A stretch of 34,867 nt of DNA from Candidatus Omnitrophota bacterium (GCA_026387555.1 JAPLLM010000003.1:1935-36801); one strand, 5' to 3'; numbered from the stretch's first letter, positions 1 through 34,867 are shown. Translations and numbers: made by a program. Notes: generated from the sequence alone by a model not told the origin.

Positions 1-3000
1 AATTTTCCATCCTTCAGCAGTAAGCCCCTCTACATTCAAACCCTGGCCGATGTATAAACTTACGCTTTGCGGGGTGCCTGCCTTTATTTTGTCATAGAAC
101 TGCCCGGATGCATTCTTGCGGATATACTGCGCCAGAAATTCTCCCCATGCACCTTCATTCTTACAAACTCTTAATCCTTCCCAGAATCCTTGCAAACCTT
201 TCTGTGATAGGGTCGTCACCACCATCCCCAACCCGATTGCTAATGTAAACACAGGCTCAAATCCCGGCAGTATCAAGAAGGCATGCGTGGAAGTAGAATT
301 GGGCTGTGCGGGAGCGGGTTGTACTTGAGTTGCTTTTTCGGCGGCTAGCCTGTCAGCGAACTGCTTGGCGCCATAAAAATCCCCATTCGCGCAACAGCAA
401 TATGCGGTATACGGGAGAATATTTAACTCGTTTTTGCTTACTTTGCCGGCAAATGCTTGGCGGATGGTAGTCGCAGCTACTTCAAAAGGCATCCCGATGA
501 TAAAATTGGCATCCAGGGTGGTCTCTATAGTCTCTCCCACTACTTCCCGTTCAAAGAATATCGCGGAAACCTTATGCAATACGTCACTGTAAGGAACTAT
601 CTTCTTTTCTTTGACCTCTACGCCCGTCTTTGGATCAAGATGGGAAACCTCATAAGAAATCTCTATGGAAACATTATCTTCTAATTTCTGGATAGTATCT
701 AGCTTAGGCGCTTCTCCTGCCTTTTTGACCACCTGGCCCTCATACTCCACCTGTCTGGCTACCCATGCCTCATATTCAGGCCTACCCCTTTCCATTGAGT
801 TTGGCGGCTGCAACTCATCAGGGAGAAATAAATCCGCTCCGTCTCTATCTTTAACTTTCAGGCGGGCCCAACGGTTGTAGTGGTCTCTTCCCACCATGTA
901 AAAGGCTTCGATCTTCTGGTGGCTATTCATATTCAAGATACGAAAGATATTTGTTTCACCATCCAACGGGGTACCTGAAGCAATGGGGCAATAAGCAAAG
1001 AGCGGGTCGAACATTTTCAATACCTTTTGAGCCATGATGTGGCGTGGATGATCTGCAAGCAAAGAACTGGCTTTTCTCGGGTCGCTGCCGGCGATGACAT
1101 AAATAATCTTATCCAGCTTGTATTCGGCAATAGCAGCCAGCCCGGCGATCAGATGCATCCAGGTAAAAGGATTAGCGGCAACAGGATAGACGCCTATTCT
1201 GAATGGCCTGGGGTTTATATCGCATACCTCGCCGCGGTGAAGAGCGGGCTTAATGTTTGGATTGATCAAGCCTAATTTTAAATGATCGGCTATCTGGGCC
1301 AAATAGCGTTCGCTAAAACTCTTGATGATTGCGAAATGGCCCTCATTATCTTTCATCCCTAACTCCAGGGCCATATTTTTCAATTCGTTCTCAATCTTCC
1401 GGCTGATGATATTCGTAATCGGATTGGATTGACTGGTGGAGAAAGTCGGCAGGGGCATGGGCCTGCCGGGATGGCCAAAACGCACCTTGCCTGCTAACTG
1501 CCTGGAGATTGCATTAAAACTTTCCTCCATCCCTCTTATTTTCTTGCTTAATACCCCGTACTCTTCGGTAAACATATACTTCAGGATCCTTCTTTTTAGG
1601 TTTACGATATTTTCTTTTTGCGGTATATGCCTAGTGCCTTCTTCTCCTCCTGCTGGCACGCGCACAAAGAAAACTTCTTTCAAACAGGTGATCTGGCCGA
1701 TAACCCTTATCAACCCTCCGGAGCCTGACCGGCTATCGATTAACCACGGAACCTTAGCCGCGATCTTATGGTTCATTTGCGCCTTAAGCCTTTCTATATC
1801 CGCTGTTGTATTCCTGGTATAGGCTTCATCCAACTGCCGGAGCTCATCCTCGGTGATCCCGAACATACCGGCTAAATCAGGAAGGTATATATGCTCATTT
1901 GCAGTATGGAAGAGCCTGAAATATTTACTAAAGGTCGCGAAATCGGTTTTTGCCAGCTTCTTGATCCCTTCACTCAAACAGGAGCGTTCTACGATCTGCT
2001 GGCGGCTCTCGTTTTTGGGCTGGCATCCTTCTTTGAGATTAACCAGGTAGCCGCCGATATCTTGAGGAGTGGTTACAGAGACTTCGCTCATTACTGTTTT
2101 ACCGGATAGATAAAACATTGCCATTAGCACCGGTTCAGGAAAAGCCACCAGATTATCTATATTGGAAGTCGCGTAGATATGTTTTTTAGTTTTAGCATGT
2201 AACAATCGATAAAGCTGACCGCTGGTGATAAGCGATTGAATAAGGCCAAAATGCCCGGCAGGAGTAAAGTCTGATTTTACTCCGCTTGCGTGTATGTGCG
2301 AAAAATCTTTCATCGAGAAACGGCGGTTCTTATCCGTCTGCAGATAAAACTCGGTTGCCGGATCCAAACCATAGTTCCCTTGACGGACGAAATCATCCCG
2401 TACTTCTCCATCAGTCGAAAAGCTGGTTAAGGTCAGAAAAGGAAAATCTATTCCGAACTTATCCCTGAAATATTGCACCACTCGGGCAGTGATTTCATTA
2501 AAGGAGCGCCCGCCGTAAACCGGGACTATTCCGGTACCCTTGGCAATATCTTCACTTCCCAATACCGCCCAGCGCGAACCAAGCCCGGCATTAGGCTTGG
2601 CGTACACATACATGGGAAATAGCGCCGCACCTAATTGGTATAACTGCATATATTCTGCAGTCAAAAGATGTTTATCGCCTGCCTGCCTAATATCCGTCTC
2701 CAGAGAATTGGCTATGACCATCAGCCTATTAACATTCTGTAGGCCGCATCTTTTGCAGATAGCATCGATCTCTTTCCGGTTTGCGATTAAATAATCGGTC
2801 AATTCTTTGAATCTTCCCGGAGAGACTTCGAAACTTACTGTTTCGCCGGCTTTTAGAGGCATTACAGGTACCTGCGGGGAAGGCCACACATCATTCAGGC
2901 TATGCACCTTTATCTGTGTTTCGGCAGAAAACGTGCCGATCCTCATCATCGCCTGAATCTTGAGCTGCTCTTCGCCGTTATCAACGGAAAATGCGGTATC

Positions 3001-22900: not shown

Positions 22901-25900
22901 CTATCATCTGAGGCTCCATACGGCAATCCTTAATAAGTCGTTCTAAGAAATCAGCTACAGTAGCAGCGTCTTTCCGTTTCAGAACGGCTGAACAGACTGT
23001 GGCGATTAATTGCAATCTTTCATTAGCAGGTAGAATAACGTTGATACTTTTATCGCGGTATAGAGGTAGCCCCAGAATGTCTCTCAACAAGACAAATACA
23101 TCTTCTTGCTTGGCGTCCTGAAAGATATTTCGCAATTTTTCTTGGCGTAGTAATTCATCTCGGATAGTCAATATTGTTACCAGCGGACTAGTTAAGGGTA
23201 CTGAAGACCTGACGCATGTTATGCCAACTGCAACTAATACCAATACACTGGAAATAAAGTAGGGGTCAACAAAGGGTAATATCGATAAAACATTGTTGCT
23301 ACTTCTATTCTCTGTATTCGCTCGTACCGCCGCGCCGACAGCTTTCTGAAATTTAAGAAGAACACCATTAATTGACAATTTTAACTTTTCAGTTGAACCG
23401 TTATTGTCGATTACTTGATTCGACATGCTCAAAAATTTTCGCTCAGAAGGAAATCCGGGGTTCTTGGCAAATCTCTTCTCTGCTAACTGTTTAGTCATGC
23501 CAAATTTACTAAATCTTGCTAACACGGTTTCCTTGCGTGCCGTTTCATTTCTACGTATATACCAAACCTCATCCCACAACGAGCTCAAGCCAAGTATATG
23601 GTTAAAAGCACAATCGACAATAATTAATCGGTTCCCCTGAACAAGTGCGCCTCGAATCTCCTCTAATACAATCTTTGCTATCGCAGGAATAAATATGCGT
23701 CTGAACTTTCTGTCTATGCGCATCACCAATATTTGCTTACCACCGATACCGCTTACTACTTCAGAGCACTGCTTAAAGGCAGAGCGCATTATTTCACGAT
23801 ATCTTGGGTTTTTGGGGAATTCGTGTTCGGTGTCAATTACGCGATAATTTAACGAAACCAGATAACTTGCTACTGTGGACTTTCCGCTTGCCGGATATCC
23901 CATCAATGCGATAATTTTTGCGCCTTTTTTATTTTTTAAAGCCAATAATTCTTTCATTTCACTAGACTGGGAATTACTGGTTACAAATGTCTTTATCCAT
24001 AATGCCACCGCGCCAACAGCTATACCTACAATCATTACTGCAGTCATAAGAAAATCGCCCAACACCATTCCCATCACCGCATTGCCTGACTTACCGTCAT
24101 TCTTCACCACGGTCGCCGCCGCGCCGGTATTCTTAAGCATAAATGGCTGCTCTCCCAACGCAATACCAAGCTCCCTATCTTCCTTAAGTTTCTCTAAGAT
24201 TGTGTTTACGATTTGTTCATGAATCAAGCACTTTATCCCGCAAGTTTTACAGATTTCCGGATCGTGCTTAATTTCTTTGCTTCTTTCTAATACTGCTTCT
24301 ACCGAGGCTTGCGAAAAATCTCCGACCTCAAAGTCTCCACGCCATGCATTCAAGGGATGCTCAAGGTAATCGCATAAAAATCCTACCCCAAAAGGATTGA
24401 CCACCATTTTGGACATCCGGATTTGGCAGGTCTTTGCCCTCGGCATACCGGTCAGGAATTTCTCATCGCCTCTTAAATCGTTCTCGGTCATTCCTCTCAA
24501 ATCTAAGCCCATCTTCATTTGTTTATTATAATTATATTTACCGCTCCGGGCATTCTCCTGCATAATAACAATCTGTCGCAAAATCTCTGCAATCTCCACT
24601 GGATTAAATGACCTGACAATCGCGCCCATATCAACTCTCACGGCAAGAAAATCGACGCCTAAATTATATGCCCAATCCGCGGCTTTCAGGATATCCCGAT
24701 AATTAGATGGTTCGGGGATCACTAAGTAAGTCAGACCGATTTCGACTTTAAAACCCGTTTCCCTCTTCCTCGTTACCAGTTCTCTGATATTGTTTTCTAC
24801 CCTCTTAAAGTTAAATTCTGGTTTAATTGGCCGGTGGACACTGCGGAACATTTCTTCGCCAATTGCAGATATACTAAATCTTACCCATCCGCTTTCTAAA
24901 GCAACTTCACGTGCCCGGCCAGCCAGAAGCTGACCGTTGGTGTATAATTTAGTACGCAGGCCCAGCCTGTTTGCTTCATCTAATATATGCCAGGCAATAT
25001 CTGTAGTAAGCGGCTCCAATCCCCCGGAAACCCAAATTTGTTCTGTCCCGCCCTTAGCAAATTCCCTGACCAGCTCTCTGGCTTTTTCGGCGGTCAAAGG
25101 TTTTCTGCCATTCCTGCTATCTTGATAACGGAAAGGACAATCTTTGTTGTGGTTGGTATAACAATATACGCATTTATAGGGACACCATGTGCCCGGATGA
25201 AACTCTGCAAGAAGTGGATAGACAACGGTTTTCTCATCAAAAATCCCCTCTAAACTCTTGCAGTGCTGCAACTGGAATTCGATCTCCCCTGCCACGCCGG
25301 CAAATTCGCTGTTATTGATCAACATCTGATGCAGCCCAGACACAGAGCGCAACATTCTATACGCCCGCAATAACTCACTGACTGAAAGATTGTTTCTTCT
25401 GCAGATCTCTTCGCTCTTGGCAACCGGAACCAATAATAAGGAACTAAGAACAGCGGCGGTATTCTTCAAATCTGGGGCTGAAATCTCATTACCTGATTTC
25501 GTAATCAGGCCTTCCAGGATCGGCGCAGCTTTTTCCGGGTCATTTTTCAGGAGTCCGGCGAGGTCACTGAGCGCCTGCGGCCCTTCAAATAAGAACTTTC
25601 TCTTGGTTGGATTAAACGGTCCTTCCGCAATAACTAGGACACGATTAGGGGAGGTATTCAGGAAGCGAAAACGATGTGCGGAAAAATTAATGGCCTTATC
25701 CCCTGCTTTCAATGAAACCGTGTACCGTTCCTTGGCGTGCTTATCCGCGAATACTGCCTCGCACTCGCCTTCTAAAAGCATGACCATATCCAACAACGGA
25801 CGCTCATCAGACCCTGCTTTATCCCAACTTAAGGAATTAACGGGTGGCTCTAAATGCAGGTACTCACCTTCACCGGATCTATCCTGCGGAGTCTTTAAGC

Positions 25901-28900
25901 CTGCGCCTAATGGGTTAGAAGGAACAAGGATGGGTTTCATCGCCTTATACTTCGGGTCATTCTGCCATAAATTGCTAGGGATAGCCGCAATTAACTCGCC
26001 GCCTTCTCTTATTACGTTAATATCATTAAGTAAGTCGAGTTTTTCTGCCAAGGTTTGCGCTTTTTTATCGATTATTCTATTTTTGCTGGCAAAAATCGTA
26101 AAGACAGCACCCACGCTTGACGCTTGCAGGGTATACGGAACGTACAAAGCCGCAATTCTTCCTTTCTCCAACGAAACCTTCTTGCCGGCAAACGTCAGCT
26201 CAACATCCCCATTTTCAATAACTATAATATTTTCAATACTATCTTCTTTCTGTTGATAGCATTCTCCTTGCCTGCTGAACGCTCTCGTTGAAATTGTGAT
26301 TGTCTGGCCGACTTCGTCGAATGATGCGACACTGCCTGACCTCATAATGATAGCAAGACGATCCCCTCTGCTATTCCGTACTTCCTCCATTATTCCCAGT
26401 GCAAAAATTCCTAACCCAGCTAAAAGTATATCTGCAGCCGGTTCGCCGGTAGAAATGAAAGGAATAACGAGGCCCATTGTCGCATTGCTTGACTTAGCTT
26501 TATTTGTTGCCCTGGCCGTCACCGCTACGCCGAACTTCTTCGCAATAACCGTAACCAGTTCCCCTCTTCCTCCAGCCTCTATTTGTTTTTTATTTTGGAT
26601 TACGCGTTGGAAATCTGCATCCGAAATCAGGCCATGTTCATGCTCTACGGCAACCCAGCGTTCATTAAATTTAGTTTCCAAATGCACTATCTCAAATCCG
26701 CTTTTCTCAAAAAGCATTCTTAATGTTTTCGGAGAGAAGTAATAGAAGTGGCCTATTTTAATATCGGAAAATTCCCTACCCTGGATTCTTCCTACTTCGC
26801 TATCCAAATTAGGCAATCTGGTTATGTACAACAGTCCACCATCCTTTAAAACCCGGCGCGACTCAGCTAATTCTGCGCTTGGGGCCAAAAGATGCTCTAA
26901 TGTTGCAAAATAACCCAATAAATCCAGCGAATTGCTTTCAAAGTTACGTTGGTGCAATGTTCCGTGAAAGGCCTTAAGGCCGTCCCGTGTTAACAATCCT
27001 ACCGCTTCCCTTGAAGTATCAATGCCTTCAACATCGAAGCCAAGTTTAGCTGCAGCTTTAAGATGATGTCCAGGGAAACCGCAACCGACATCCGCCATTT
27101 TCACTTTTTTGACATCGCCTAAATAGCGAGAAATAAATTCTATCTCCTGTGCTGCAGCGGCTTCCCTTTCAGGGCTAAGTTGATAGAAACCAGGCTCCCA
27201 TTCTATAACCCTAGGATTACGCACATAAACCAAGCCACAATTCCCGCACCTTACGATTATATCCTTTCTATCCGCCCGATAGCCATGTCCCGGAATCTTT
27301 ATTTTTCCGAGAGGAATATTCTCATCCTTTGCCAGAATTATCGGACCTACCCTAAATAATTCTATCTGCCTACCAGACCCACAAAGATTACAACATGTAA
27401 TTTCCGCTTCCGCCGAAACCTGCGGTTGCCCTACTTCTCTGAGCCCGTTAGCGATTAAATCCGGAGTTATGTTTTTGAATTCTTCGTTTTTGATTAAAAC
27501 AGTGTACCCGCTCATTTCCGGCACTCCCCAGCCATTAGTATAGAAACTATCAGGTGCCCTTTTCACGCGCGGATAGATAAATACAACAAACTCTCCGGAC
27601 GGCATTTTCTTCAATAAGATATCCAGCATATCCGGCTTAAAGCCCATCCGGATAAACTCTTCTACTTTATTTCTGGTAAGCGCCTTTACCTCTTGGCTCA
27701 CTTTGCCTCTAAGTAGTGTGTTATCCACCGGCCAGGATGGCACTCTACCTATACTCACCGCTCCCCTTTGCTCTTTAACTTCTACGGGTTGAGCTTCAAT
27801 GCTAAACCTATTCAGGCAACCTTGGAAATGGAAATGTTCTGGGATACTTCTGGCGGGACCGTTAAGGAACAGGCTTACTCCCGGAGCTTCAGCCACGAAA
27901 TCAAAAGCAACATTTAATACCTCTTCATCCCCCACAGTCTTGGTTTCTTCCCCGGTATGCCTTTTTGCCGCTAAGACAAAGCCGTGTTCCCTTGTCCAAG
28001 TAAAAGGATTTATAAGAATCCTATAATCACGCCAAGAGAATCCTCTCTGAGCCAGCGGCATAAATTGCGGGCACAGGTTACACCTCGTCCCACTCTCCCC
28101 GCCTATCTCTTTTATATCCAAAGCCAGACGCTTGATTAATAGTGGGAGGATATATATCCCATATTTTCTGGTGTATGTTAATGGGTGTAAGAGCATATCG
28201 GCGGCATTCTTTGGCTCTGCTGATAAACTTACTCCTTGTTGATAATGTTTGGGGTCGCGGTGGGCACAATAAGCCGCCTCAAACGGATCTACCTTCTTTG
28301 TCTCTATCCCCTTTATTCTGGCATCGACAAATCCCACTTTGCGCTGCTGCCAAGAAATGGCCTTGATTATATCCGTCATAGTGTATACTCTCAACCAGCG
28401 CAAGGATAATAACAGTAATCCTGCTGTAAAAGGATCAAAAGCACCAGAAATTTTATGATGCCACGCTACCTGTTCGGGTGCATATTTTAGATAGTTTTTC
28501 AGCACTAAGATTGTTGCTAATACTATAACTACTGCTAGTATCGCTGTACCAGGGAAGGAAATTAATGAATTGCAATTTACATCTGTGGATGGTTTATTTT
28601 CTGATGCAGGTTTTGTTGCGGGACTAGACTGTACATTCGGCGGCGCCTGCGACTGCTGCTGACTGGCTAACTCCCTAATTTTCTGTTGAGCGTTTTCGGG
28701 GGTAAAAGAAGAGACAAAAAGTATGGAATTAGTAAGATCCAAAGAATGGAAATAATAATTTATTGTTCGACCGGTAGTTAGAGGTTCGAATGCCGTATAA
28801 GAATCAGGACAAATTTCACTTTCGCTTTTTTCTAAACCATCTTCTTTTTCTCTGGCAAGATCTAAGCTTAAACTTATCACAATACTAGCCAATATGGGAT

Positions 28901-30071
28901 CTTCTATTGTTCTTATTATTGGAGGTACTACTCTTCTAATAAACTCGCGGTGAATATGATGTCTACTATAAATATCTCTCCAGTTGATAGATGCAGTTTT
29001 GCTGACCCATAAATTTTCGCTTGCTTCTAATATTTGGATGTGGGAGGCGAATCTGGCTAGATTTCCTCCCGCTAACTCTGATGCCAAAGGAACACCTACC
29101 TCAATGATGTCGCAAGGGGGCATGTTATTACGCGCCAATCTTATTCCCATTTCCATGGCGAGATTAAATTCTTCGGCGCTTTGAATTCCCCTTACCATGC
29201 GAGGGATGGAGTTTAAAAGAGCGTAATAAATAGGCTTATTTTCTGATTCTAGTACTGATAATAAAACCTTAGTGCTAGCGAAATTAATATCATATCTCTG
29301 TGTACTCCTTAAGGCGATTATATGCTTTGGAATTACCGAGATTAGACAAACGACATTAGGTAACCTGTATCGTAAGAACTCTACTATTGTCTTATAAATA
29401 GGTAACCCACTGCTTTTTGCATCTATAAACTTATAAATAACATAACCAACTATCATCGCTATCGCGAGAGAAACAAACCATGTGAAAACATGAATAGATG
29501 ATACCTCGATCGGTAACAAAACTGCTAAGTTGGGAGATTTAGCCGCAGGCTGCGCTGACTCAGGCTTCTTGGGTTCTTCCAGCTTGGCCGCAACAACTTC
29601 TGCTGGCTTTACAGTTACCGGAGTTTTCAGCGCTTTGCGGCGCGAGGCTTTATATCCAAACCAACCAGCACCAGTCAAAAATAGCGCCCCTATTCCTGCT
29701 AATATCCCGTACTTTAGCTTTTTGTTAATGCTTGTCTGTCCTGCTTGCGGCTGTTGGCTTGCCTTGAGGGCCACTGTTTGGGAAGCAGAAGAAGGCGCAA
29801 CCGGTGGCCCTACGGTTGGCTTGGCCGCAGGAACCTGCGCTTGCTTTTTCTCTTTTTTCTCTACTTCTTTAGGCAACCTTACATTAGCCATTCCTGCATC
29901 GGCTTCCATAGCACCCAACTCATTGTGCATAGAAGCTAGGTCATTTACCGCATCAGCGAGTTTTCTCGTAGAAGTTTCAAACTCATAATTAAGAGTGCCT
30001 ATTTTCTGATGGGTAAATTCTTCGACTTGAACACGCGCTGCTGCACGGTCCCTACCCACATAGATAGACAA
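19401..30071 (-). CDS. Giant ORF B (3,556 aa): membrane-tethered multi-enzyme protein (HIT-type nucleotidyltransferase, methyltransferase, radical SAM, kinase, 2x GT2 and others)
   Basis: Track ORF. TTG start at 30069-30071. An in-phase TGA at 30078-30080 excludes a longer N-terminus. Stop TAG at 19401-19403 (mRNA ...GCA GGG ATT CTT CGT TAG). It overlaps the end of ORF A by 20 nt. My residue count (3,556) agrees with the track, so aa-to-nt conversions below use codon high coordinate = 30071-3(i-1). Confidence 0.9.
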   Translation of the reverse strand: MSIYVGRDRAAARVQVEEFTHQKIGTLNYEFETSTRKLADAVNDLASMHNELGAMEADAGMANVRLPKEVEKKEKKQAQVPAAKPTVGPPVAPSSASQTVALKASQQPQAGQTSINKKLKYGILAGIGALFLTGAGWFGYKASRRKALKTPVTVKPAEVVAAKLEEPKKPESAQPAAKSPNLAVLLPIEVSSIHVFTWFVSLAIAMIVGYVIYKFIDAKSSGLPIYKTIVEFLRYRLPNVVCLISVIPKHIIALRSTQRYDINFASTKVLLSVLESENKPIYYALLNSIPRMVRGIQSAEEFNLAMEMGIRLARNNMPPCDIIEVGVPLASELAGGNLARFASHIQILEASENLWVSKTASINWRDIYSRHHIHREFIRRVVPPIIRTIEDPILASIVISLSLDLAREKEDGLEKSESEICPDSYTAFEPLTTGRTINYYFHSLDLTNSILFVSSFTPENAQQKIRELASQQQSQAPPNVQSSPATKPASENKPSTDVNCNSLISFPGTAILAVVIVLATILVLKNYLKYAPEQVAWHHKISGAFDPFTAGLLLLSLRWLRVYTMTDIIKAISWQQRKVGFVDARIKGIETKKVDPFEAAYCAHRDPKHYQQGVSLSAEPKNAADMLLHPLTYTRKYGIYILPLLIKRLALDIKEIGGESGTRCNLCPQFMPLAQRGFSWRDYRILINPFTWTREHGFVLAAKRHTGEETKTVGDEEVLNVAFDFVAEAPGVSLFLNGPARSIPEHFHFQGCLNRFSIEAQPVEVKEQRGAVSIGRVPSWPVDNTLLRGKVSQEVKALTRNKVEEFIRMGFKPDMLDILLKKMPSGEFVVFIYPRVKRAPDSFYTNGWGVPEMSGYTVLIKNEEFKNITPDLIANGLREVGQPQVSAEAEITCCNLCGSGRQIELFRVGPIILAKDENIPLGKIKIPGHGYRADRKDIIVRCGNCGLVYVRNPRVIEWEPGFYQLSPEREAAAAQEIEFISRYLGDVKKVKMADVGCGFPGHHLKAAAKLGFDVEGIDTSREAVGLLTRDGLKAFHGTLHQRNFESNSLDLLGYFATLEHLLAPSAELAESRRVLKDGGLLYITRLPNLDSEVGRIQGREFSDIKIGHFYYFSPKTLRMLFEKSGFEIVHLETKFNERWVAVEHEHGLISDADFQRVIQNKKQIEAGGRGELVTVIAKKFGVAVTARATNKAKSSNATMGLVIPFISTGEPAADILLAGLGIFALGIMEEVRNSRGDRLAIIMRSGSVASFDEVGQTITISTRAFSRQGECYQQKEDSIENIIVIENGDVELTFAGKKVSLEKGRIAALYVPYTLQASSVGAVFTIFASKNRIIDKKAQTLAEKLDLLNDINVIREGGELIAAIPSNLWQNDPKYKAMKPILVPSNPLGAGLKTPQDRSGEGEYLHLEPPVNSLSWDKAGSDERPLLDMVMLLEGECEAVFADKHAKERYTVSLKAGDKAINFSAHRFRFLNTSPNRVLVIAEGPFNPTKRKFLFEGPQALSDLAGLLKNDPEKAAPILEGLITKSGNEISAPDLKNTAAVLSSLLLVPVAKSEEICRRNNLSVSELLRAYRMLRSVSGLHQMLINNSEFAGVAGEIEFQLQHCKSLEGIFDEKTVVYPLLAEFHPGTWCPYKCVYCYTNHNKDCPFRYQDSRNGRKPLTAEKARELVREFAKGGTEQIWVSGGLEPLTTDIAWHILDEANRLGLRTKLYTNGQLLAGRAREVALESGWVRFSISAIGEEMFRSVHRPIKPEFNFKRVENNIRELVTRKRETGFKVEIGLTYLVIPEPSNYRDILKAADWAYNLGVDFLAVRVDMGAIVRSFNPVEIAEILRQIVIMQENARSGKYNYNKQMKMGLDLRGMTENDLRGDEKFLTGMPRAKTCQIRMSKMVVNPFGVGFLCDYLEHPLNAWRGDFEVGDFSQASVEAVLERSKEIKHDPEICKTCGIKCLIHEQIVNTILEKLKEDRELGIALGEQPFMLKNTGAAATVVKNDGKSGNAVMGMVLGDFLMTAVMIVGIAVGAVALWIKTFVTSNSQSSEMKELLALKNKKGAKIIALMGYPASGKSTVASYLVSLNYRVIDTEHEFPKNPRYREIMRSAFKQCSEVVSGIGGKQILVMRIDRKFRRIFIPAIAKIVLEEIRGALVQGNRLIIVDCAFNHILGLSSLWDEVWYIRRNETARKETVLARFSKFGMTKQLAEKRFAKNPGFPSERKFLSMSNQVIDNNGSTEKLKLSINGVLLKFQKAVGAAVRANTENRSSNNVLSILPFVDPYFISSVLVLVAVGITCVRSSVPLTSPLVTILTIRDELLRQEKLRNIFQDAKQEDVFVLLRDILGLPLYRDKSINVILPANERLQLIATVCSAVLKRKDAATVADFLERLIKDCRMEPQMIAEAKLMVNSYLSFYRIRTPVKVATVISVYGHQLSIQKKSEFEGAEDAMRNKILQLQELFSVNPLLDWQLIYVQDGDDRKYTSSLNSFKTTDLMLGILRKEFTAELKSGRICVFEVDQSLKEQIQGCQGSGVLYGMRKAVQLGAGIVIYTNVDLDTHVGLEGNIIKPLMEGSLDLVIGSNRVKGRVLHMGRLYYWYSIVLNRFIRTVLPVGHILDTHNALKGVKPEMIDTILPVSAQGDFEKGFDYFYTSSDLWISRAKVRGYRVGEVPSCMHHSPRLSVVSPWLSLKFFIRIWRQRKLLDEWKAATRSQVLLLQIATVEICEENKVRVIAKDSFEYQERLLQQIVKTKQSDKLLDFCRAVLSTDRSNNLAVRERFILLRMALALSLKESGVAILSMLGTVFSQQPEAKLLFESYRQVSRIAVLTKISTVMVLSRPEDHARSEYLRTRLEQLEDLYGFNPNVKWELIVVHEESYRNTPAELWQDKIKQECLSYAVKGQLKFLEIPWETCNRLGGRFGPGATYGMAHAIKGGADYVIYGHIRPAIDLALEGIILRPTMESSNNVGVASKFAPGSILQRGLKRNIGSYSYNWIVRSCLPRLSALTDTQCPFKAFSRDILDKILPVTIDGIWDNAFDYWTSFDTNLLGRADVIGARLIEAPVIFKISQREGSRCGEALRMVWGLVRQRNFLWQFRQQQNLIKQGTSPLVFIRDGKNMGSYLDWRDPSRVVKIPKRHYLNTVQNKNVNTPIHTNVQIRSSLFKKVIESLVRKVISINMIFRILKMIQQRKTLRTAFENIVTRILSRPALSMQEVVTMAQKLKGLIGDVHFYPGFRGVRGAKLYCGPAFSQQYGVISLEGALRLAVAHGNTALGRILIDEAFGVQEQIWQHGYFNWDTDNILIDTMMTSAGCWILVDFSDMTEDINLASQRLLNAHNSPFYLFTLLTIEEFSLELAQYYRTKFEKTFTTENLQKHWKYAMISPGPGDKAVNSVMAAVEDRKESIVTLREVKDHFAQANIVSQDHHILLCSSTGGRALRQGLLGLASETKGDIVVLGKRLTEITTRQAEIFSRVLPSGHWFVWLPADAACWLTPDDIPLLQQQIEGNNKLVVLGMEQQERQRDPPLSGFYAAKTETLNVIGTRLGQILSETGNVHNWNVGRQGGVSVSAGILR
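19430..19438 (-). promoter_or_regulatory. Strong internal Shine-Dalgarno-like AAGGAGGAG just upstream of the B stop / C frame opening
   Basis: The + strand ctcctcctt at 19430-19438 gives mRNA CAAGGAGGAGTTTCAGTTAGTGCAGGGATTCTTCGTTAGAAAAGTGG. No ATG/GTG/TTG in the ORF C phase follows within 150 nt, so its role (start site, frameshift stimulator, or chance Gly-Gly codons) is unresolved. Confidence 0.3.
20037..20804 (-). other. Protein-kinase-like / small-molecule kinase-like fold (tentative)
   Basis: aa ~3090-3345: SPLVFIRDGKNMGSYLDWRDPSRVVKIPKR near the start. WQHGYFNWDTDNILID...GCWILVDFSDM resembles the H.D....NIL ... iDF catalytic/activation segments of APH/choline/Kdo kinases, but the spacing is not canonical. 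Confidence 0.25.
20832..21638 (-). other. GT2 glycosyltransferase module 2 (dolichyl/polyprenyl-phosphate hexose synthase-like)
   Basis: aa ~2812-3080: ISTVMVLSR..., LIVVHEESYRNTP, GPGATYGMAHAIKGGADYVIYGHIRPAIDL (DxD position degenerate), LTDTQCPFKAFSRDIL (DTQCPFKAF = 21069-21095, canonical), FDYWTSFDTNLLGRADVIGARLIEAPV. Confidence 0.65.
22017..22850 (-). other. GT2 glycosyltransferase module 1 (dolichyl/polyprenyl-phosphate hexose synthase-like)
   Basis: aa ~2408-2685: VATVISVYG..., LIYVQDGDDRKYT, GSGVLYGMRKAVQLGAGIVIYTNVDLDT (DxD present), ILDTHNALKGV (22239-22262, degenerate form of DTQCGFK), FDYFYTSSDLWISRAKVRGYRVGEVP. Confidence 0.6.
23211..23342 (-). repeat. Junction element copy 5 (ORF B aa 2244-2287), full form
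   Basis: AVGAAVRANTENRSSNNVLSILPFVDPYFISSVLVLVAVGITCV. Confidence 0.7.
23352..23939 (-). other. P-loop NTPase kinase module (dephospho-CoA kinase / nucleoside-kinase-like)
   Basis: Walker A IIALMGYPASGKSTVASYL (GYPASGKST verified at 23874-23900). Walker-B-like LIIVDCAF. Lid-like RRNETARKETVLAR. Confidence 0.6.
23982..24131 (-). repeat. Junction element copy 4 (ORF B aa 1981-2030), full form
   Basis: NTGAAATVVKNDGKSGNAVMGMVLGDFLMTAVMIVGIAVGAVALWIKTFV. The 15-nt string cccatcaccgcattg (24070-24084) is identical to 16031-16045. Confidence 0.7.
24177..25238 (-). other. Radical SAM module (CX3CX2C) with C-terminal Cys-rich tail
   Basis: HPGTWCPYKCVYCYTNH. The three Cys codons were verified on the DNA at 25182-25184, 25170-25172 and 25161-25163. 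GGE-type SAM motif IWVSGGLEPL. Distal cysteines: C1882, C1900 and CKTCGIKC (aa 1941-1948). Confidence 0.75.
25572..26366 (-). other. Two cupin-like beta-barrel segments (tentative bicupin; sugar isomerase/epimerase-like?)
   Basis: aa ~1236-1500: IVIENGDVELTFAGKKVSLEKGRIAALYVPYTLQASSVGAVFTIF and MVMLLEGECEAVFADKHAKERYTVSLKAGDKAINFSAHRFRFLNTSPNRVLVI. Both follow the cupin G-x-hydrophobic...l.aGD...ip pattern. No metal-ligand motif recognised. Confidence 0.3.
26382..26531 (-). repeat. Junction element copy 3 (ORF B aa 1181-1230), full form
   Basis: GVAVTARATNKAKSSNATMGLVIPFISTGEPAADILLAGLGIFALGIMEE. Confidence 0.7.
26667..27149 (-). other. Class I SAM-dependent methyltransferase module
   Basis: Motif I KMADVGCGFPGHH (VGCGFPG = 27069-27089). 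An acidic residue ends beta-2 (FDVEGIDTS). Motif III-like region RVLKDGGLLYI. Confidence 0.65.
27234..27401 (-). other. Four-Cys zinc-ribbon-like segment preceding the methyltransferase
   Basis: aa 891-946: ITCCNLCGSG ...(about 40 aa)... RCGNCGLVY. Two CxxC pairs. Confidence 0.4.
27492..28106 (-). other. HIT-superfamily nucleotidyltransferase/phosphorylase module, GalT / GDP-hexose-phosphorylase branch (HxHxQ)
   Basis: aa ~656-860: TRCNLCPQF (CxxC), then FSWRDYRILINPFTWTREHGFVLAAKRH...GVSLFLNGPARSIPEHFHFQG. HFHFQ verified on the DNA at 27822-27836. This pattern (N.P...H..l, then N..gA..S..H.H.Q) is the GalT/Apa2/GDP-L-galactose-phosphorylase signature as I recall it. Confidence 0.5.
28491..28589 (-). 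repeat. Junction element copy 2 (ORF B aa 495-527)
   Basis: STDVNCNSLISFPGTAILAVVIVLATILVLKNY. Confidence 0.45.
29430..29540 (-). repeat. Junction element copy 1 (ORF B aa 178-214)
   Basis: KSPNLAVLLPIEVSSIHVFTWFVSLAIAMIVGYVIY. Fits N-x-x-[VM]-L-[LI]-P-x-[DE] plus hydrophobic helix. Confidence 0.45.
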
Positions 30072-33000
30072 ACGGCCTCATCGCAGACTCAAGAAATCTT
30101 TGCACTTTTGTATGCAGTGAGCTAAATAAGATACAGTACCCAGCTAAGATGACAGCAGAAAGAAATATAATACTAACGGCAAAAGACAAGGTAACCACAG
30201 AAGTTGTGGTGCCGGATATAAGCATAGCTACGGAAAGCGGCAAGAATAATCCCAGCCCTCCGCCGATGATAAATGTTACTACCTTAATTAAGAAGCGTGA
30301 ATCCGAGTGTCCGTGAAGGGCATTATATAACCAAGGGGCAAGAATCATAGAAAGTGCCATAGAACAAGCAAAAATATAGCTTGAGAATGAGATAATATCT
30401 AAACCACAGAATATCGCAGAGAGGTTGATGACTACGAGATAGATAGCACCGGATATTATTGTCGGCCTGAAAATCGGACCCAGCTCAGGGCTTTTCAAGA
30501 AATCGCGGAAAGGAACAGGATTCAATCCCATGCCTTTTAAACTGGTCACCCAAATCGCTGCGCCCTCAATACCTTTCTTGTTACCGTGGAAAAGAATCGG
30601 TATCTGAATACCGGCGAAGAAAGGTATAGCCATAGGCAGCCAACGGAAGATAAACCAAAGTATTCCCAAGAAGAATCCGTGCTGTTTAATCTTATTAGCA
30701 ACCAGATAACTGGATATTGATTGGCTAAGCACCCAATACATCACCAACATAAGGGGCATAAAAGGCATACTACCAAAAGGATTGCAATTAAACATCTGGA
30801 TAAAGGGTAGAAGAAGAGTACAAACAATCGCCAAGAAGCCGTTGGAAAGATAAAACATCAGCTGGTTATTCCTGCGTACCTTCTTATACCACGGGATATC
30901 AAAATTATTAACAAGGCCGGGAACTTTTATCTTTTGTCCGTAATTAATATTCGCTCCGCGTATGGAATCAGGAAGGACAAAGTCGCTTCCTGAGAAACCG
31001 CGGCTACCGGCAAGTTTAGCTGCGCCTGCTGTCCATTTGTCTAATGGCGTGGGGAATTGACCGACACTATTCTCAAATCCTTCCGTGGTTTCCGCGTAAA
31101 AGGCCACCCTGCCCAACATTTCGGGGAAGGCATCATTCATATCATTACTCATCGCGGTGTCTTCTGAAGGCTGGTCAGTCTCAAATGCCCCAGAAGCGTA
31201 ACATTTATCCAGACGGAAATATTTGTTATGGCCATAGAAACCCGACTGCTGCACTACTTCATCTTCCATAGGCACAACATCATTCCACCAGACATCCTGC
31301 GCCGTTCCGCCTAAGAAGGTAAACGGAGAATAACTTAAGGTGGTGATACGGTTACGCGTATTCAGGAACAATAATTTATCGTTCTTATTAAATTCGTCAA
31401 GGCAGGCGGGAACGCTCTCTATATCCTCCACTACCGTATCGGCATCGAGGAAGAAGGAGATTACGGGATGCTCTGGGTCATCCGGTATAAATTGCCTGCC
31501 GCCTCTAGTAACTGCTCCTATCTTACCTTTGTTGCAGTTCGGGCCACCGGGAGTAGTAACCCCGGCACGGCAGATTACCAATGGATTAGCTCTTACTGTA
31601 GTTATTCTGTATCCTGCCTTACGCGCTGCTTGTACTGAATCCACATATCCGCCCCATTCGCTGTAATAGTGGAGGCGCTCTGCGATATAGTTAAGGTCTG
31701 CCTGAGTGATCCCCGGGATAGCTTGAGCTCTTGCCTGAATACCTTGCAGATTTATCACCATTAATTCACCTAAGGAAACCGTACCCGGCCTGTTTGGTAT
31801 TTGTCTATTAGAGTTGTCTATATGCAAAGTATAAATTTCATCTGCTCTACCGAGCCGCTCAAACTCCCGATGCACTTCGACCATAGTACGGCAAGCGCCC
31901 CAGACGGTCTGGATATGTTGATTTGCCCATTCGCAGATTCTATAGCCAGCAACAGGGTTAGGTTGAACTCCTTGCCTCGTAATAGGCGAATTCTTCCTGA
32001 AGCCCAATGCCTGTTGAATAACCGGATAATCTTCAAGATGAAGATGGCCTTTTGAACCGCCGTAAAGACCACCCATTTCTGTCTCAAAGCTATTTCTGGA
32101 AATAGATTTGGTAAACAAATGGTTCAAAATACTCTGCTGGGATAATAACCAATGAATGGGGAATGTATTATTCAATATATTTAATAAAACTGCGTCTGTC
32201 CTGACCACTGCCACTCTAATTGCCTCTAAGAGTTCCGCAGGTAACCTATCTACGTGCTTAATTATGCTTTTGCTTTTTGAATCTATCGAATGGTTTAAAT
32301 TAAGCGCGGTCCGTATTGGTTGAGGGACATTGTTGTAATTGGTATTGTTCGTGTTCGTATAAACATTATGCCTAGTAATAATATCAATGAAGTGCCTAGC
32401 ACCTTCTTCTCTCTGTTGTGCGTCTTGGATATTCATTAATCCTTGTAGTATGCTACTTGGCAATACGGGACAAATCAACTCTTCAAAAGTATAGAAATCC
32501 GGCTCTACCACAGAACAGAGGAAATAAAGCAACCTGCACCTTCGTTCTCCTTCAACTGCCTGCGGCCGGATTAAGAGGGCATTATTTAGTAGGATCTGGC
32601 TGATAAATAAGGCAAGACTGCCGATTTCGGCAACGGTATAATACGACATTGCGGCTAAAGCAACTTGCGGGGCAACGGAATAAAGATACGCGGCAAGCAC
32701 GCCAAAGATGACTGCATTAACCAAATGTTTCCAGAGTGGCTTGGCGTACCTGGCTTTTATTTCCGGTGCGATAAATGAGTATCCGATTAATTCGGCGAGA
32801 GCAGAAACCAACCCGGCAACGATACCGAATGCCAATCCGAATATCAGCGCATGCGTGGTTATTGCCGAAACCCAACCACCCAATATCTTCCCTACATACA
32901 ATAAGACATGTTGGTCAACTAAACCAAAATAAGTTACTAAGCCGAAGAGAATAAAGTGCGCGGCTTTCTGGAACCAGTCAGACCTTTTCTCTATCGCCCC

Positions 33001-34867
33001 CATTAAAAATATGGCGTGGACGAAGATATTAATACCTAATAGATAAGCCGCCGCGCCGCTTGTAACCAGCCCGAAATACTGCAAGATGTGCGTAACCGCA
33101 GCCACCAAGGTGGTGCCGATAAATATCCTGTAAATGGCGTTCGGGCCACGGTATAAAGCTGTGGCTCCTTCAGGAAGATGGAAACACGGCAACCAGGTCA
33201 TGGTAGTTATCAGAATAAGGTATATTCCGGCTAAAAGCACTGCCGGGATACTGCCTAAGCCAAGAGCACTTACCTGAGCGATAAACCAAGGCAAAGTGGT
33301 AACCACAAGATACCCTGCGAAACCTAGGTACAGTGGTATAATTCCCATCTGATGCAGAATTTTGCCGAACGGTGCGCTATCCGCACCCTTAAATATAAAT
33401 CTTTGGACTAAATGAATAGTTAAGTAAATGCCAACGCCAATTCCAACAGCAATTGGCATACTGAGAATACCCTTAATTACAGCAATAGCTAATCCTGCGC
33501 CTGCAATTAAAGGCATGGCATCCAGAGTAAATCCGTTCCAGAAAGAATTGGTCCTCTGGCTTATCTTGGGGCAAAGCAGGAATAAAGCTACTCTTAACGC
33601 ATACAAACCAACAAATAATCCTAAGCCTCCGGTAAAACCGTTTATCATATAATAAGCTGTTGCCAACAAATATACGCTAAGTGAAAGCGGAATAAGCTGC
33701 GGCAGCCAATAAGTGAAGTTAATCCTTCCTCCCTGCGGCTTGCCTTCTGTAACTGCTTTCAAGAAAATGATGAAGCTGTTAATATTAATCCTGCGGGTAT
33801 TAGCGTCTGCAACATTAGTTACTGTTCCTTCCAAAGCCAACTGGAAGTAAGGATGTACTGCCTCGTGCGGGAAGAAACTAACCAAATTGCCGCGCTTGCC
33901 AAACCATAATCCATTTTTAAAGAGCCACTGTAAAGCCGCTTCTGCTTCGGGGTTAAGATTAGCGAAATCTGGGACACCTCTGTTTCCTAGATTCTCCCTC
34001 GTCACGTTAAGCGGAGGACCAGCAATGAGAAGTTGCTTGACTTGGGCATAAGTTACTGCGGGATTAATAACCAAAGCAATCCTTGCCGTGACATAAAGGG
34101 AATCAATGATATTCTGTAAATCTGAAAGGAATGTCCTTACATCTCCATCTGTCCAGCCATCGCGCACTACCCTCTCCTGTAGCCAGAAGAATAAAGAATT
34201 CACCGGCTTCTGGTCTGTATTCAGGGAGCTATTCATCACCCCGGTGATTACGGGATTATTGAGCTGCCTGTTGGCTGCTTGTTCGCTAGGTCGAACGACA
34301 AAACCCTTATTAAATACTCTATACATCAAGAAGCTGGCGATACGTAGTGCCACTTCGACAACAGCCACCGAAACTAACAGTTTCACGACAAAAGTTTCGG
34401 GCAACACGTATCCAAACAACTTAGCAATAAAATGTACGGGCACATATATCGGGAATCCTCCGTTTACAAACGGCATGCCGAATAGAACATAGGCTATAGC
34501 GCCTAAGAAAGTTATTCTTACTATCCAAATTATGGTATCATTGACCAAATAATTTGTGCGGCTTGTGTTTTCCTGTGCCTGTTGGACAACATTGGCATTT
34601 GCAGGCTGTACGGGGTTAAGTTGAACTTGAGGTTGTCCTTGCTGCTGAGCGTTTGCAACCCGCTGTCTACGAGTAGCAAATATTAACCTTACTGCTAGAA
34701 TTGCTTTCGCAATTAAAGCTATCCCTAAAGCCAACAGCGCTATGCCGGCAAGAATCTTTCCGGTGCTAATAAGATTAACTTGCGCTTTATGTGTAGTGAA
34801 CTGTTTTTGCGGATTAGCCAGATCCGCGCTATTCGTCTTAGCCTTAATAATAGAAACCTGATCCTTA
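30052..34867 (-). CDS. Giant ORF A (>=1,604 aa, 5' end outside window): polytopic membrane glycosyltransferase with a beta-1,3-glucan/callose-synthase-like (GT48-like) core
   Basis: Track ORF 30052..34734 (1560 aa, called from TTG at 34734). My translation of 34735..34866 in the same phase gives KDQVSIIKAKTNSADLANPQKQFTTHKAQVNLISTGKILAGIAL with no stop. The hydrophobic helix ILAGIALLALGIALIAKAILAV runs straight through the called start, so the true start is upstream of the window. Stop TAG at 30052-30054. Confidence 0.85.
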   Translation of the reverse strand, partial: KDQVSIIKAKTNSADLANPQKQFTTHKAQVNLISTGKILAGIALLALGIALIAKAILAVRLIFATRRQRVANAQQQGQPQVQLNPVQPANANVVQQAQENTSRTNYLVNDTIIWIVRITFLGAIAYVLFGMPFVNGGFPIYVPVHFIAKLFGYVLPETFVVKLLVSVAVVEVALRIASFLMYRVFNKGFVVRPSEQAANRQLNNPVITGVMNSSLNTDQKPVNSLFFWLQERVVRDGWTDGDVRTFLSDLQNIIDSLYVTARIALVINPAVTYAQVKQLLIAGPPLNVTRENLGNRGVPDFANLNPEAEAALQWLFKNGLWFGKRGNLVSFFPHEAVHPYFQLALEGTVTNVADANTRRININSFIIFLKAVTEGKPQGGRINFTYWLPQLIPLSLSVYLLATAYYMINGFTGGLGLFVGLYALRVALFLLCPKISQRTNSFWNGFTLDAMPLIAGAGLAIAVIKGILSMPIAVGIGVGIYLTIHLVQRFIFKGADSAPFGKILHQMGIIPLYLGFAGYLVVTTLPWFIAQVSALGLGSIPAVLLAGIYLILITTMTWLPCFHLPEGATALYRGPNAIYRIFIGTTLVAAVTHILQYFGLVTSGAAAYLLGINIFVHAIFLMGAIEKRSDWFQKAAHFILFGLVTYFGLVDQHVLLYVGKILGGWVSAITTHALIFGLAFGIVAGLVSALAELIGYSFIAPEIKARYAKPLWKHLVNAVIFGVLAAYLYSVAPQVALAAMSYYTVAEIGSLALFISQILLNNALLIRPQAVEGERRCRLLYFLCSVVEPDFYTFEELICPVLPSSILQGLMNIQDAQQREEGARHFIDIITRHNVYTNTNNTNYNNVPQPIRTALNLNHSIDSKSKSIIKHVDRLPAELLEAIRVAVVRTDAVLLNILNNTFPIHWLLSQQSILNHLFTKSISRNSFETEMGGLYGGSKGHLHLEDYPVIQQALGFRKNSPITRQGVQPNPVAGYRICEWANQHIQTVWGACRTMVEVHREFERLGRADEIYTLHIDNSNRQIPNRPGTVSLGELMVINLQGIQARAQAIPGITQADLNYIAERLHYYSEWGGYVDSVQAARKAGYRITTVRANPLVICRAGVTTPGGPNCNKGKIGAVTRGGRQFIPDDPEHPVISFFLDADTVVEDIESVPACLDEFNKNDKLLFLNTRNRITTLSYSPFTFLGGTAQDVWWNDVVPMEDEVVQQSGFYGHNKYFRLDKCYASGAFETDQPSEDTAMSNDMNDAFPEMLGRVAFYAETTEGFENSVGQFPTPLDKWTAGAAKLAGSRGFSGSDFVLPDSIRGANINYGQKIKVPGLVNNFDIPWYKKVRRNNQLMFYLSNGFLAIVCTLLLPFIQMFNCNPFGSMPFMPLMLVMYWVLSQSISSYLVANKIKQHGFFLGILWFIFRWLPMAIPFFAGIQIPILFHGNKKGIEGAAIWVTSLKGMGLNPVPFRDFLKSPELGPIFRPTIISGAIYLVVINLSAIFCGLDIISFSSYIFACSMALSMILAPWLYNALHGHSDSRFLIKVVTFIIGGGLGLFLPLSVAMLISGTTTSVVTLSFAVSIIFLSAVILAGYCILFSSLHTKVQRFLESAMRPFVYLCG
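30076..30079 (-). promoter_or_regulatory. Shine-Dalgarno-like GAGG 4 nt upstream of the TTG start of ORF B, inside the end of ORF A
   Basis: The mRNA reads GCGATGAGGCCGTTTGTCT. GAGG is at 30076-30079 and TTG at 30069-30071. The spacer is short (4 nt), so this is only a weak call. Confidence 0.3.
30115..30867 (-). other. ORF A C-terminal membrane block (about 8 helices, aa ~1290-1540)
   Basis: Hydrophobic runs: FLAIVCTLLLPFIQMF, FMPLMLVMYWVLSQSISSYLV, FFLGILWFIFRWLPMAIPFFAGI, IISGAIYLVVINLSAIFCGL, YIFACSMALSMILAPWLY, VVTFIIGGGLGLFLPLSVAMLI, LSFAVSIIFLSAVILAGYCILF. Confidence 0.7.
30955..32097 (-). other. ORF A cytoplasmic GT-A glycosyltransferase core, GT48 (FKS/callose synthase)-like motif set
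   Basis: Motifs read from the protein and checked on the DNA. RICEWANQHIQTVWGACRTM (W at 31927-31929; cf. GT48 R.WAS.R.QTL.RT). FLDADT (DAD 31438-31446). FYGHNKYF (31216-31236; cf. YGHPD[FV]F). PSEDTAMSNDM (31147-31167; cf. NEDI[YF]AG). DKWTAGAAKLAGSR (31000-31041; cf. K.A.G.GEQ.LSR). FYLSNGF...FIQMF then leads into the C-terminal helices. GT48 consensus strings are from memory. A cellulose-synthase-like GT2 is the fallback call. Confidence 0.5.
32575..33717 (-). other. ORF A N-terminal polytopic membrane block (about 12 hydrophobic helices, aa ~340-720)
   Basis: Consecutive 18-25 residue hydrophobic runs in the track protein, e.g. LPQLIPLSLSVYLLATAYYMI, GLGLFVGLYALRVALFLL, MPLIAGAGLAIAVIKGIL, IAVGIGVGIYLTIHLV, IIPLYLGFAGYLVVTTLPWFIA, IPAVLLAGIYLILITTM, ALIFGLAFGIVAGLVSALAELI. 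Confidence 0.7.

Follow-up and report, generated by a model that had tools for sequence, protein, structure and literature searches.

A giant Omnitrophota locus probably encoding a membrane-associated multi-enzyme protein with nucleotide-sugar modules

Results

Three abutting giant reading frames

The stretch of DNA analysed here (the window) comprises 34,867 nt from a Candidatus Omnitrophota metagenome-assembled genome (MAG), and an ORF scan shows that its coding capacity lies entirely on the minus strand, in three abutting stop-free open reading frames (ORFs), A, B and C, with a total of 11,635 codons. We consider it likely that the window represents an inner portion of a giant locus for a membrane-associated multi-enzyme protein of at least 11.6 thousand amino acids (kaa), in which B and C derive from one ancestral frame. 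An earlier description of the same DNA, the sequence-only reading, had noted about 11,600 codons on one strand without intergenic DNA and with both edges inside ORFs, and our scan bears this out; its three ORFs hold as three frames, but probably not as three genes, since B and C appear by homology to be a single ancestral frame. Neighbouring frames share about 20 nt at each of the two junctions, with zero intergenic DNA between them. The coordinates of all features are collected in Table 1.

Given the composition of the window, a stop codon is expected about every 17 codons, and a run of 6473 codons without a stop would arise by chance with a probability of about 1e-170. The codon log-odds amount to 0.16-0.19 per codon across A, B and C, with 0.186 in C vs 0.156 in B. 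Self-BLAST of the window proteins revealed almost zero internal similarity, and the product is thus not a repeat protein; nor did Pfam searches of A, B and C give any match to nonribosomal peptide synthetase or polyketide synthase (NRPS/PKS), immunoglobulin-like (Ig) or RTX families, in line with the sequence-only reading, which had seen no such motifs or repeats. The window was also scanned for tRNAs, Rfam families and tandem repeats, and none was found. Recognised modules account for roughly 30% of the residues, while about 70% are without an assignable fold and lack a homologue even among the best 150 of 1,454 relatives.

ORF B is represented in GenBank by MCX5710362.1 (P0002), an automatically annotated "DUF4922 domain-containing protein" of a Candidatus Omnitrophota MAG that lies on a 41,122-bp contig and differs only by M/L at residue 1. 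Residues 1550-2749 of B, which cover three modules, were used as the query of an exhaustive HMMER search of 1.84 billion representatives, which returned 1,454 homologues at E<1e-3; the best 150 of these form the relative set. Among the matches listed, many are multi-kaa proteins. The named relatives are all Omnitrophota MAG proteins of 0.9-7.4 kaa, many of them 4-8 kaa in length, such as P0003 (MDD5194553.1, 6706 aa), P0016 (4658 aa), P0020 (5491 aa), P0033 (6442 aa) and P0045 (7381 aa, on a 209-kb contig). Two scans of GTDB representative genomes and one JGI metagenome scan yielded no close relative of the locus, but only an unrelated radical S-adenosylmethionine (SAM) match (L001) and JAQTOI010000058.1 (L002), the contig of P0016. 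A word-indexed protein search with B 600-1500 gave nothing useful, and the same index also missed the window's own protein. Nor did a contig index hold an exact entry for ORF B or P0002. In addition, P0012 (404 aa, a GT2 module), P0015 (535 aa), P0061, P0113 and others contain little beyond one GT2-like or radical SAM module; such modules occur outside giant ORFs too, and some of the short proteins may be fragments from short contigs.

Table 1. Features of the window, with positions counted from its first letter
Feature	Residues	Coordinates	Strand	Remarks
ORF A	1604 codons	frame 34866..30055, listed as 30052..34866	-	open at right edge, N-terminus outside window
A/B junction		30052..30077	-	20-nt frame overlap, +1 change, GGG run in overlap
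ORF B	3558 codons	frame 30077..19404, listed as 19401..30071	-	3556 aa from TTG 30071
B/C junction		19401..19422	-	-1 frame change
ORF C	6473 codons	19419..1	-	open at left edge, C-terminus outside window
HIT-like nucleotide-hexose phosphorylase/transferase (DUF4922)	HFHFQ at B 748-752	27816..28085	-	PF16269 E 3.8e-9, above gathering score
Class I SAM-dependent methyltransferase	B 972-1133	26679..27164	-	Methyltransf_23 E 3e-16, Methyltransf_11 E 6e-12, NCBIfam matches
Radical SAM module 1	B 1610-1990	24108..25250	-	CPYKCVYC; PF04055 E 2e-14
P-loop nucleoside/nucleotide-kinase-like	B 2051-2243	23349..23927	-	GYPASGKS; PDB 2f6r, dephospho-CoA kinase domain, E 1e-6
Two tandem diverged GT2 modules	B 2290-2720 and 2740-3100	20778..23210	-	relative-based profile
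Protein-kinase-like module	B about 3100-3390	19908..20780	-	weak; alignment consensus VIKIP, FNWDTDNILID, LVDFSD
Conserved module across B/C junction	B 3400-3558 and C 1-260	18640..19880	-	
Radical SAM module 2 with SPASM-like domain	C 259-611	17587..18645	-	CNLACSYC
UDPGP module 1	C 2746-2958	10546..11184	-	PF01704 E 1.3e-22, 80.6 bits (cut-off 22)
UDPGP module 2	C 5598-5853	1861..2628	-	PF01704 E 1.5e-14, 53.9 bits (cut-off 22)
NadD-like (HIGH-type) nucleotidyltransferase	C 6074-6182	874..1200	-	NCBIfam NadD E 1e-4, below cut-off
Hydrophobic elements 1-6		29418-29528, 28479-28580, 26367-26504, 23949-24101, 23205-23312, 16771-16899	-	
Hydrophobic elements 7-12		15922-16062, 13762-13896, 12484-12606, 5476-5607, 4495-4614, 175-306	-	

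Enzyme modules of ORFs B and C

B and C string together about 10 enzyme families and contain transmembrane (TM)-like segments by hydropathy, as expected from the sequence-only reading, which had proposed a membrane-associated chain of normally free-standing enzymes. Of the ~25 modules it claimed, about 12 are supported, and only about half of its module calls survived the HMM, profile and structure searches. The remainder, including a glucan synthase in ORF A, cupin-like barrels, a Pol-beta nucleotidyltransferase (NTase) and the second of two NTase/beta-helix modules, did not gain support: cupin and Pol-beta NTase were found neither by Pfam at E<=10, which added no further families in the window, nor by motif scans, and no hexapeptide or left-handed beta-helix periodicity is present in A, B or C.

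Both UDPGP (UDP-sugar pyrophosphorylase) modules that had been called score above the cut-off of PF01704, the family of the UTP-hexose-1-P uridylyltransferases, and retain an intact G-loop, PxGH and NIDNL motif (NGGLASRFGG, PGGH and SNIDNLGA in module 1; AGLGSRWAV, PAGH and SNIDNLVA in module 2). The UDP-glucose pyrophosphorylases (UGPases) of the PDB are matched at E about 1e-12 by module 1 (5weg and 2icx) and at E 2e-7 by module 2, which sits in a 1.4-kaa supermodule 42% identical to P0003 5274-6660. Both modules are of the eukaryote type, with plant, yeast and protist enzymes as best PDB matches, and not of the bacterial GalU type, and the two copies are too diverged to detect each other by BLAST. 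The HxHxQ HIT module and the SAM methyltransferase of the sequence-only reading were likewise recovered by their Pfam profiles, the former as DUF4922, a domain of the GDP-D-glucose phosphorylase GDPGP1 and of plant GDP-L-galactose phosphorylase (GGP) (PMC7041677).

The two radical SAM modules fared unequally. Module 1 is recognised by PF04055 and is DesII/viperin-like with a weak SPASM-like tail, matching DesII in the PDB (8hzv, E 2e-9) as well as TIGR04426 (E 5e-15) and the viperin family (E 5.5e-12), the latter two far below the family cut-offs; it is homologous to about 100 of the 150 relatives listed (the best of 1,454, at E <= 0.001). Module 2 is supported more weakly, with PF04055 (E 0.005) and SPASM (E 0.003) both below gathering score and NCBIfam matches to HxsC (E 1e-5) and MoaA (E 4e-5), and shares 41% identity with P0097 2801-3157 (E 1e-86).

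As for the two kinase-like modules, the P-loop module is supported by its PDB match and by NCBIfam PRK09270 (E 7e-10) and TIGR00152 (E 1e-6), with weak Pfam matches, and has hydrophobic elements on both flanks. The second might be protein-kinase-like: an AlphaFold2 model built on a 5-sequence alignment reached a pLDDT of 63 (80-95 in the C-lobe), and its top Foldseek matches in the PDB are nearly all kinase folds (PRPK, RNase L, Rio2, WbdD), none of them significant (E >= 0.1).

Neither of the tandem GT2 modules is matched by Pfam (PF00535) on its own, even at E<=10. However, a profile of both modules together with 17 relatives matches the Pyrococcus Dol-P-Man synthase 5mlz (E 5e-9), and PF00535 is matched by 5 of the 19 profile members; the call of two polyprenyl-phosphate-hexose-synthase-like modules is thus supported by the relative-based profile and not by direct Pfam search. 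The alignment consensus reads DGDDR...KGGA...YTDxDLS...DTQxxFK, with YTNVDLD, a DxD-like motif, in the window, and each relative aligns to both tandem copies. The modules resemble non-processive polyprenyl-phosphate sugar synthases (DPMS/GtrB/ArnC-like), and the polymerisation of sugars that had been proposed for the product is not evidenced.

Two further nucleotidyltransferase-like modules are more tentative. The module across the B/C junction, in which one of the two expected NTP-transferase/beta-helix combinations finds weak support, has a G-loop-like segment on the B side (GGRALRQGLL...KGDIVVLG) and an invariant N-x-P-x-x-I-x-x-x-Y motif followed by a short beta-helix-like segment on the C side, where the fold matches are to the dynactin p27 beta-helix at E about 0.3; it may thus be NTP-transferase-like. 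The segment called NadD-like carries TWMH in the window and HWMH or HLDH in relatives, and when it was combined with three related segments into a profile, the top 7 PDB matches were all NadD (best E 0.002), which weakly suggests that the call is right.

B and C as a probable single ancestral reading frame

Both frames are open only over 19404-19419 (TGCAGGGATTCTTCGT), a stretch that contains a GGG run at 19413-19415, and one extra G in this run would fuse B and C. The codon-usage signal moves to the C frame at the junction (19411), the GC content does not change there, and the C frame lacks an ATG, GTG or TTG before codon 51 (TTG 19269). Homologues of the end of B and of the start of C are colinear in single polypeptides in P0005, P0013, P0016, P0017 and P0073, with the match to C starting at residue 3. 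The tblastn match to P0005 switches from frame -3 to -2 at the junction, and in P0016 the junction module is covered by one uninterrupted tblastn segment with 100% identity (query residues 1-468) on its contig. The sequence-only reading had allowed for homologous loci that would carry the modules as separate genes with stops at the junction; what we found is the module within single polypeptides in these five relatives. In addition, the invariant N-x-P-x-x-I-x-x-x-Y motif occupies C codons 38-47 and thereby precedes every start codon of the C frame, and the invariant Trp pair B W3542/C W9, spaced by 14-16 residues in four relatives, would be 17-20 residues apart in the repaired reading of the window. 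This spacing and the conserved residues on both sides place the break inside a conserved segment of one module.

From these comparisons, B and C are probably one ancestral reading frame, and the break in or beside the GGG run represents a local error of the assembly or else a mutation that arose very recently. There is a precedent for the former, as the correction of such a local error merged two neighbouring giant genes into a single one of 74,983 aa (bioRxiv 10.1101/2023.11.21.568195). The largest ORF as assembled exceeds 6,473 aa, whereas repaired B+C would amount to at least 10,030 aa and A+B+C to at least 11,635 aa.

We regard it as unlikely that A, B and C are instead three genuine operon genes, coupled translationally through their 20-nt overlaps and produced by fission of an ancestral giant gene. 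Such an arrangement would account for B being a separate 3556-aa protein in GenBank, with a TTG start at 30071 and a GAGG 4 nt upstream, for the short free-standing homologues of single modules such as P0012 with its GT2 module, and for a strong, Shine-Dalgarno (SD)-like AAGGAGG at the B/C junction (19418-19438, minus strand), one of only three on the coding strand, which lies 11 nt upstream of GTG 19420. The ORF that begins with this GTG has a 20-nt overlap with the stop of B, an arrangement also seen for TTG 30071 and the stop of A. However, the ORF in question is a third-frame ORF of 44 codons and not the C frame, so that a one-base correction in the GGG run would be needed as well, and this correction would lengthen B by about 41 aa and the overlap to about 140 nt. 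C has no canonical start before codon 51 and is nevertheless conserved from codon 3, the split falls between the two invariant Trp of a conserved segment and not at a linker, and internal SD-like motifs are dispersed over the ORFs in no regular manner. The AAGGAGG, which encodes Q-G-G, may thus be due to chance, or may be a relic or sign of internal initiation.

The same junctions bear on two other explanations. Programmed frameshifting (+1 at A/B, -1 at B/C) could determine the relative amounts of the A, A-B and A-B-C products, and the short overlap windows of 16-23 nt with a GGG beside the stop of the upstream frame, the sequence GGG-TAG-G at A/B, which permits a +1 slip onto GGT, and the SD-like AAGGAGG upstream of B/C are all compatible with it. 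Since B/C lacks an X XXY YYZ slippery heptamer, the SD-like motif, about 17 nt away from the GGG run, is not spaced as in either of the textbook models, dnaX and prfB, and the relatives carry the junction module in a single frame, we hold this to be extremely improbable. A recently pseudogenised giant gene, with real frameshifts and a downstream part that is no longer made, might be suspected from two frame changes in 35 kb and from the large mutational target that giant genes offer. Yet there is no in-frame stop in 11,635 codons, the codon bias is undiminished downstream and the catalytic motifs of the C modules are intact. Decay, if there is any, would then have set in only extremely recently, and we give this explanation very little credence.

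At the A/B junction the coding signal also changes frame, and the annotated start of B is the TTG with its upstream GAGG described above. This junction may be a second frame break or a true overlapping gene boundary.

Hydrophobic elements between the modules

Hydropathy analysis revealed twelve isolated hydrophobic elements of ~40 aa each between the modules of B and C. In each, a polar S/N/T run is followed first by 8-10 hydrophobic residues, next by an acidic residue (often D/E-P) and last by 16-20 G/A/L/V-rich hydrophobic residues, and 3 of the 12 begin with N-A-[VT]-M-G-[ML]. A model made from ten elements found no further copy in A, B or C, with only two weak matches in A at about 0 bits, and the element HMM had no match in the best 150 of the 1,454 relatives; by these searches, the element is apparently specific to the lineage of the window. 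The charges flanking the elements have no inside/outside bias. PEP-CTERM/exosortase signals were considered as well and rejected, as the ten elements gave no NCBIfam match at E<=10, are internal and mostly lack a basic cluster.

The limits of homology to relatives lie only a few residues from the elements (B 1992/1993, B 2289/2291, C 4970/4975 and C 6374/6372), and P0003, the closest relative, has, at residues 2835, 3560, 5260 and 6660, S/P-rich soluble linkers with a repeated SSP motif, vs elements at C 4936-4975 and 6372-6415. The order of modules also differs between the two proteins, C 6403-6473 corresponding to P0003 3571-3642 and C 4970-6374 to P0003 5274-6660, which suggests that modules behave as shuffled cassettes. 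Based on the breakpoints at the elements and the linkers at the same positions of P0003, we tentatively propose that anchor-bounded modules are cassettes which Omnitrophota lineages shuffle into new pathways, and that the elements are monotopic or re-entrant anchors and not spans, since single spans would place cofactor-dependent modules on alternating sides of the membrane, which is enzymatically implausible. We consider this proposal to be possible, if on the doubtful side.

ORF A, a predicted membrane block

ORF A contains about 20 TM-like segments (Kyte-Doolittle) in three clusters (aa 38-181, 414-766 and 1338-1575) separated by soluble regions at aa 182-413 and 767-1337, and is predicted to be a polytopic membrane protein and an orphan. 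It gave no Pfam, NCBIfam or PDB match, GT2 and synthase families included, even at E<=10, and no homologue was found from A 400-1300 or the A/B junction region by the word-indexed search, which missed the window's own protein. A single-sequence AlphaFold2 model of A 880-1604 was unusable (pLDDT 40). The sequence-only reading had placed a processive, glucan-synthase-like polytopic glycosyltransferase here, of which only the polytopic character was retained: QxxRW is absent from ORF A, with only the loose look-alikes FLDAD, SED and LDKW seen by eye, and a processive GT2 glucan or cellulose synthase is not supported, as no HMM, PDB match, homologue or QxxRW motif speaks for it. P0033 has a polytopic TM block within the same giant ORF as its homologous radical SAM module.

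Discussion

A possible membrane-tethered pathway

Together, the features of the window point to a protein laid out as a polytopic membrane block (A) followed by non-repetitive, divergent enzyme modules (B and C) which would be parted by short hydrophobic anchors. The reaction order, substrates, topology and channeling we infer from the module set are as follows. The kinase-like modules would provide sugar-1-phosphates or nucleotides, from which the two UDPGP, the NTP-transferase-like, the NadD-like and the HIT/DUF4922 modules might make or interconvert nucleoside diphosphate (NDP)-sugars. The radical SAM and methyltransferase modules could then tailor these NDP-sugars, and the two Dol-P-Man-synthase-like GT2 modules would load sugars on polyprenyl phosphate, for use on the membrane's outer face. 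Around the same conserved modules, P0016 and P0013 contain APH, LpxC and GT2-like modules and an NAD-dependent sugar epimerase/dehydratase, which reinforces the nucleotide-sugar and polyprenyl-phosphate-sugar theme already put forward in the sequence-only reading.

Several points weigh against this interpretation. As about 70% of the protein is dark, the coherent theme is drawn from a minor part of it, and most HMM scores are far below family-specific cut-offs, for which reason no substrate can be named and no orthology is claimed. The annotations of other Omnitrophota giants include unrelated enzymes (racemase, GNAT and HPr names, among many others). The AAGGAGG ahead of the B/C junction could indicate a genuine internal start. 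Finally, elements that each span the membrane once would put neighbouring SAM-, ATP- and UTP-dependent modules on opposite sides of it, as in the series methyltransferase, radical SAM, P-loop kinase and GT2, in conflict with a purely cytoplasmic pathway.

Such an alternation is also what would be expected of an extracellular predation or adhesion coat protein of the Archaeovorin type, as the many hydrophobic segments would then expose alternate modules outside, where they could act on the cell walls of prey. This function has been proposed in the literature for Omnitrophota giants, and peptides of the V. archaeovorus giant protein were increased in attached cells. In the window, however, Pfam at E<=10 detected no glycoside hydrolase, peptidase, dockerin, lectin, HEAT, SecA_DEAD or NUDIX domain. 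The compounds on which the recognised modules depend, namely SAM, reduced Fe-S clusters, ATP or UTP, are unavailable outside the cell. Some of the predicted outside locations are called unlikely by West-Roberts et al. themselves (bioRxiv 10.1101/2023.11.21.568195). We thus consider it very unlikely that the locus encodes a coat protein of this kind, and favour the membrane-associated multi-enzyme protein.

Comparison with known systems

The likeness to the free-standing enzymes of nucleotide-sugar and lipid-linked-sugar metabolism (GtrB/ArnC/DPMS, DesII) extends to the same superfamilies, and those of the window fit a pathway sequence of kinase-like, NTP-transferase-like and UDPGP modules, tailoring by radical SAM and methyltransferase modules, and DPMS-like GT2 modules. 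An anomeric kinase and a uridylyltransferase are likewise paired in AmgK-MurU. In contrast to free-standing enzymes, the window modules are fused and membrane-tethered, have at most 20-30% identity to characterised enzymes and miss the family-specific HMM cut-offs. With NRPS/PKS megasynthases the window shares multi-kaa modular enzymes and cassette modules, a likeness that is organisational only, as carrier-protein, condensation, adenylation and KS domains are absent and a covalent hand-off of substrates is not evidenced.

Giant Omnitrophota ORFs with many TM helices and few annotated domains have already been noted for the phylum, in agreement with the sequence-only reading, whose pointer to Omnitrophota proved right, but its statement that it knew of no described system with such an architecture is out of date (bioRxiv 10.1101/2023.11.21.568195; 10.64898/2026.06.07.730766). 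A class of "multi-enzyme metabolic clusters" combines sugar metabolism, kinase, methyltransferase, HIT and radical SAM domains with TM helices, and its members have unique sequences and recurrent architectures (bioRxiv 10.64898/2026.06.07.730766). The window belongs to the same phylum and resembles this class in the many enzyme families in one polypeptide and the scattered TM helices, with about 10 families at no more than 2 copies each, none of which dominates, and no internal repeats. It differs in size, since the exemplars of the class are of 80-147 kaa and its catalogue starts at 10 kaa, whereas the window, which is incomplete and annotated as several ORFs, accounts for at least 11.6 kaa. 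It also differs in content, as the starch synthase, GT1, phosphoglucomutase, ROK and receiver Pfams of the class were not detected in the window, which has two UDPGP, DUF4922, two DPMS-like GT2 and NadD-like modules instead.

The Archaeovorin type protein, of 39,678 aa, is that of Velamenicoccus archaeovorus, with a size threshold of >30,000 aa (bioRxiv 10.1101/2023.11.21.568195). Glycosyltransferases, methyltransferases, glycoside hydrolases, peptidases and NUDIX domains form a consistent set in this type, and most full-length giants also have a divergent SecA_DEAD/preprotein-binding domain. Similar to Archaeovorins, the window comes from Omnitrophota and has numerous TM segments, glycosyltransferase and methyltransferase domains of divergent sequence, no identifiable domain in its N-terminal region and adjacent giant ORFs that can merge on curation. 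Unlike in them, neither HEAT/TPR repeats nor GT5/GT1, glycoside hydrolase, peptidase, NUDIX or SecA_DEAD domains were found in the window, which is a 35-kb fragment of the gene, and such domains could lie beyond its edges. The architecture is one that has already been described, and a new kind of system is not established; what the window adds is the readable set of nucleotide-sugar modules, the punctuation elements and the signs that a frame is broken.

The giant genes of Omnitrophota rank with the largest on record, and the fragment studied here is comparatively readable. What can be recognised of its modules speaks for nucleotide-sugar and lipid-linked-sugar chemistry in the cytoplasm and not for the extracellular wall degradation or adhesion that is usually proposed, which sharpens the question of whether these proteins are membrane-tethered metabolons, and of the side of the membrane on which their modules lie. 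In addition, "abutting giant ORFs" of a MAG contig may turn out to be a single gene with a one-base break, which affects the counts and lengths of giant genes in databases.

Base composition and plus-strand ORFs

The GC content is 41% across 17000-24000, which covers the end of B and the start of C, vs 47-49% at 8000-13000, and the GC content of third codon positions (GC3) is 0.40 in B and 0.475 in C. These differences, which coincide with neither junction, may reflect a mosaic origin of the modules. A chimeric assembly was rejected, as the GC drop at 17-24 kb matches neither junction and P0003 shares modules with both B and C. Three ORFs on the plus strand, antisense to the giant frames (7514-8014, 25390-26256 and 29530-29988; 152-288 aa) have codon log-odds of ~0 and are most likely spurious. 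The GC skew of the plus strand is negative throughout (cumulative -3.2), the coding strand thus being G-rich, which is consistent with the strong gene strand bias reported for complete Omnitrophota genomes.

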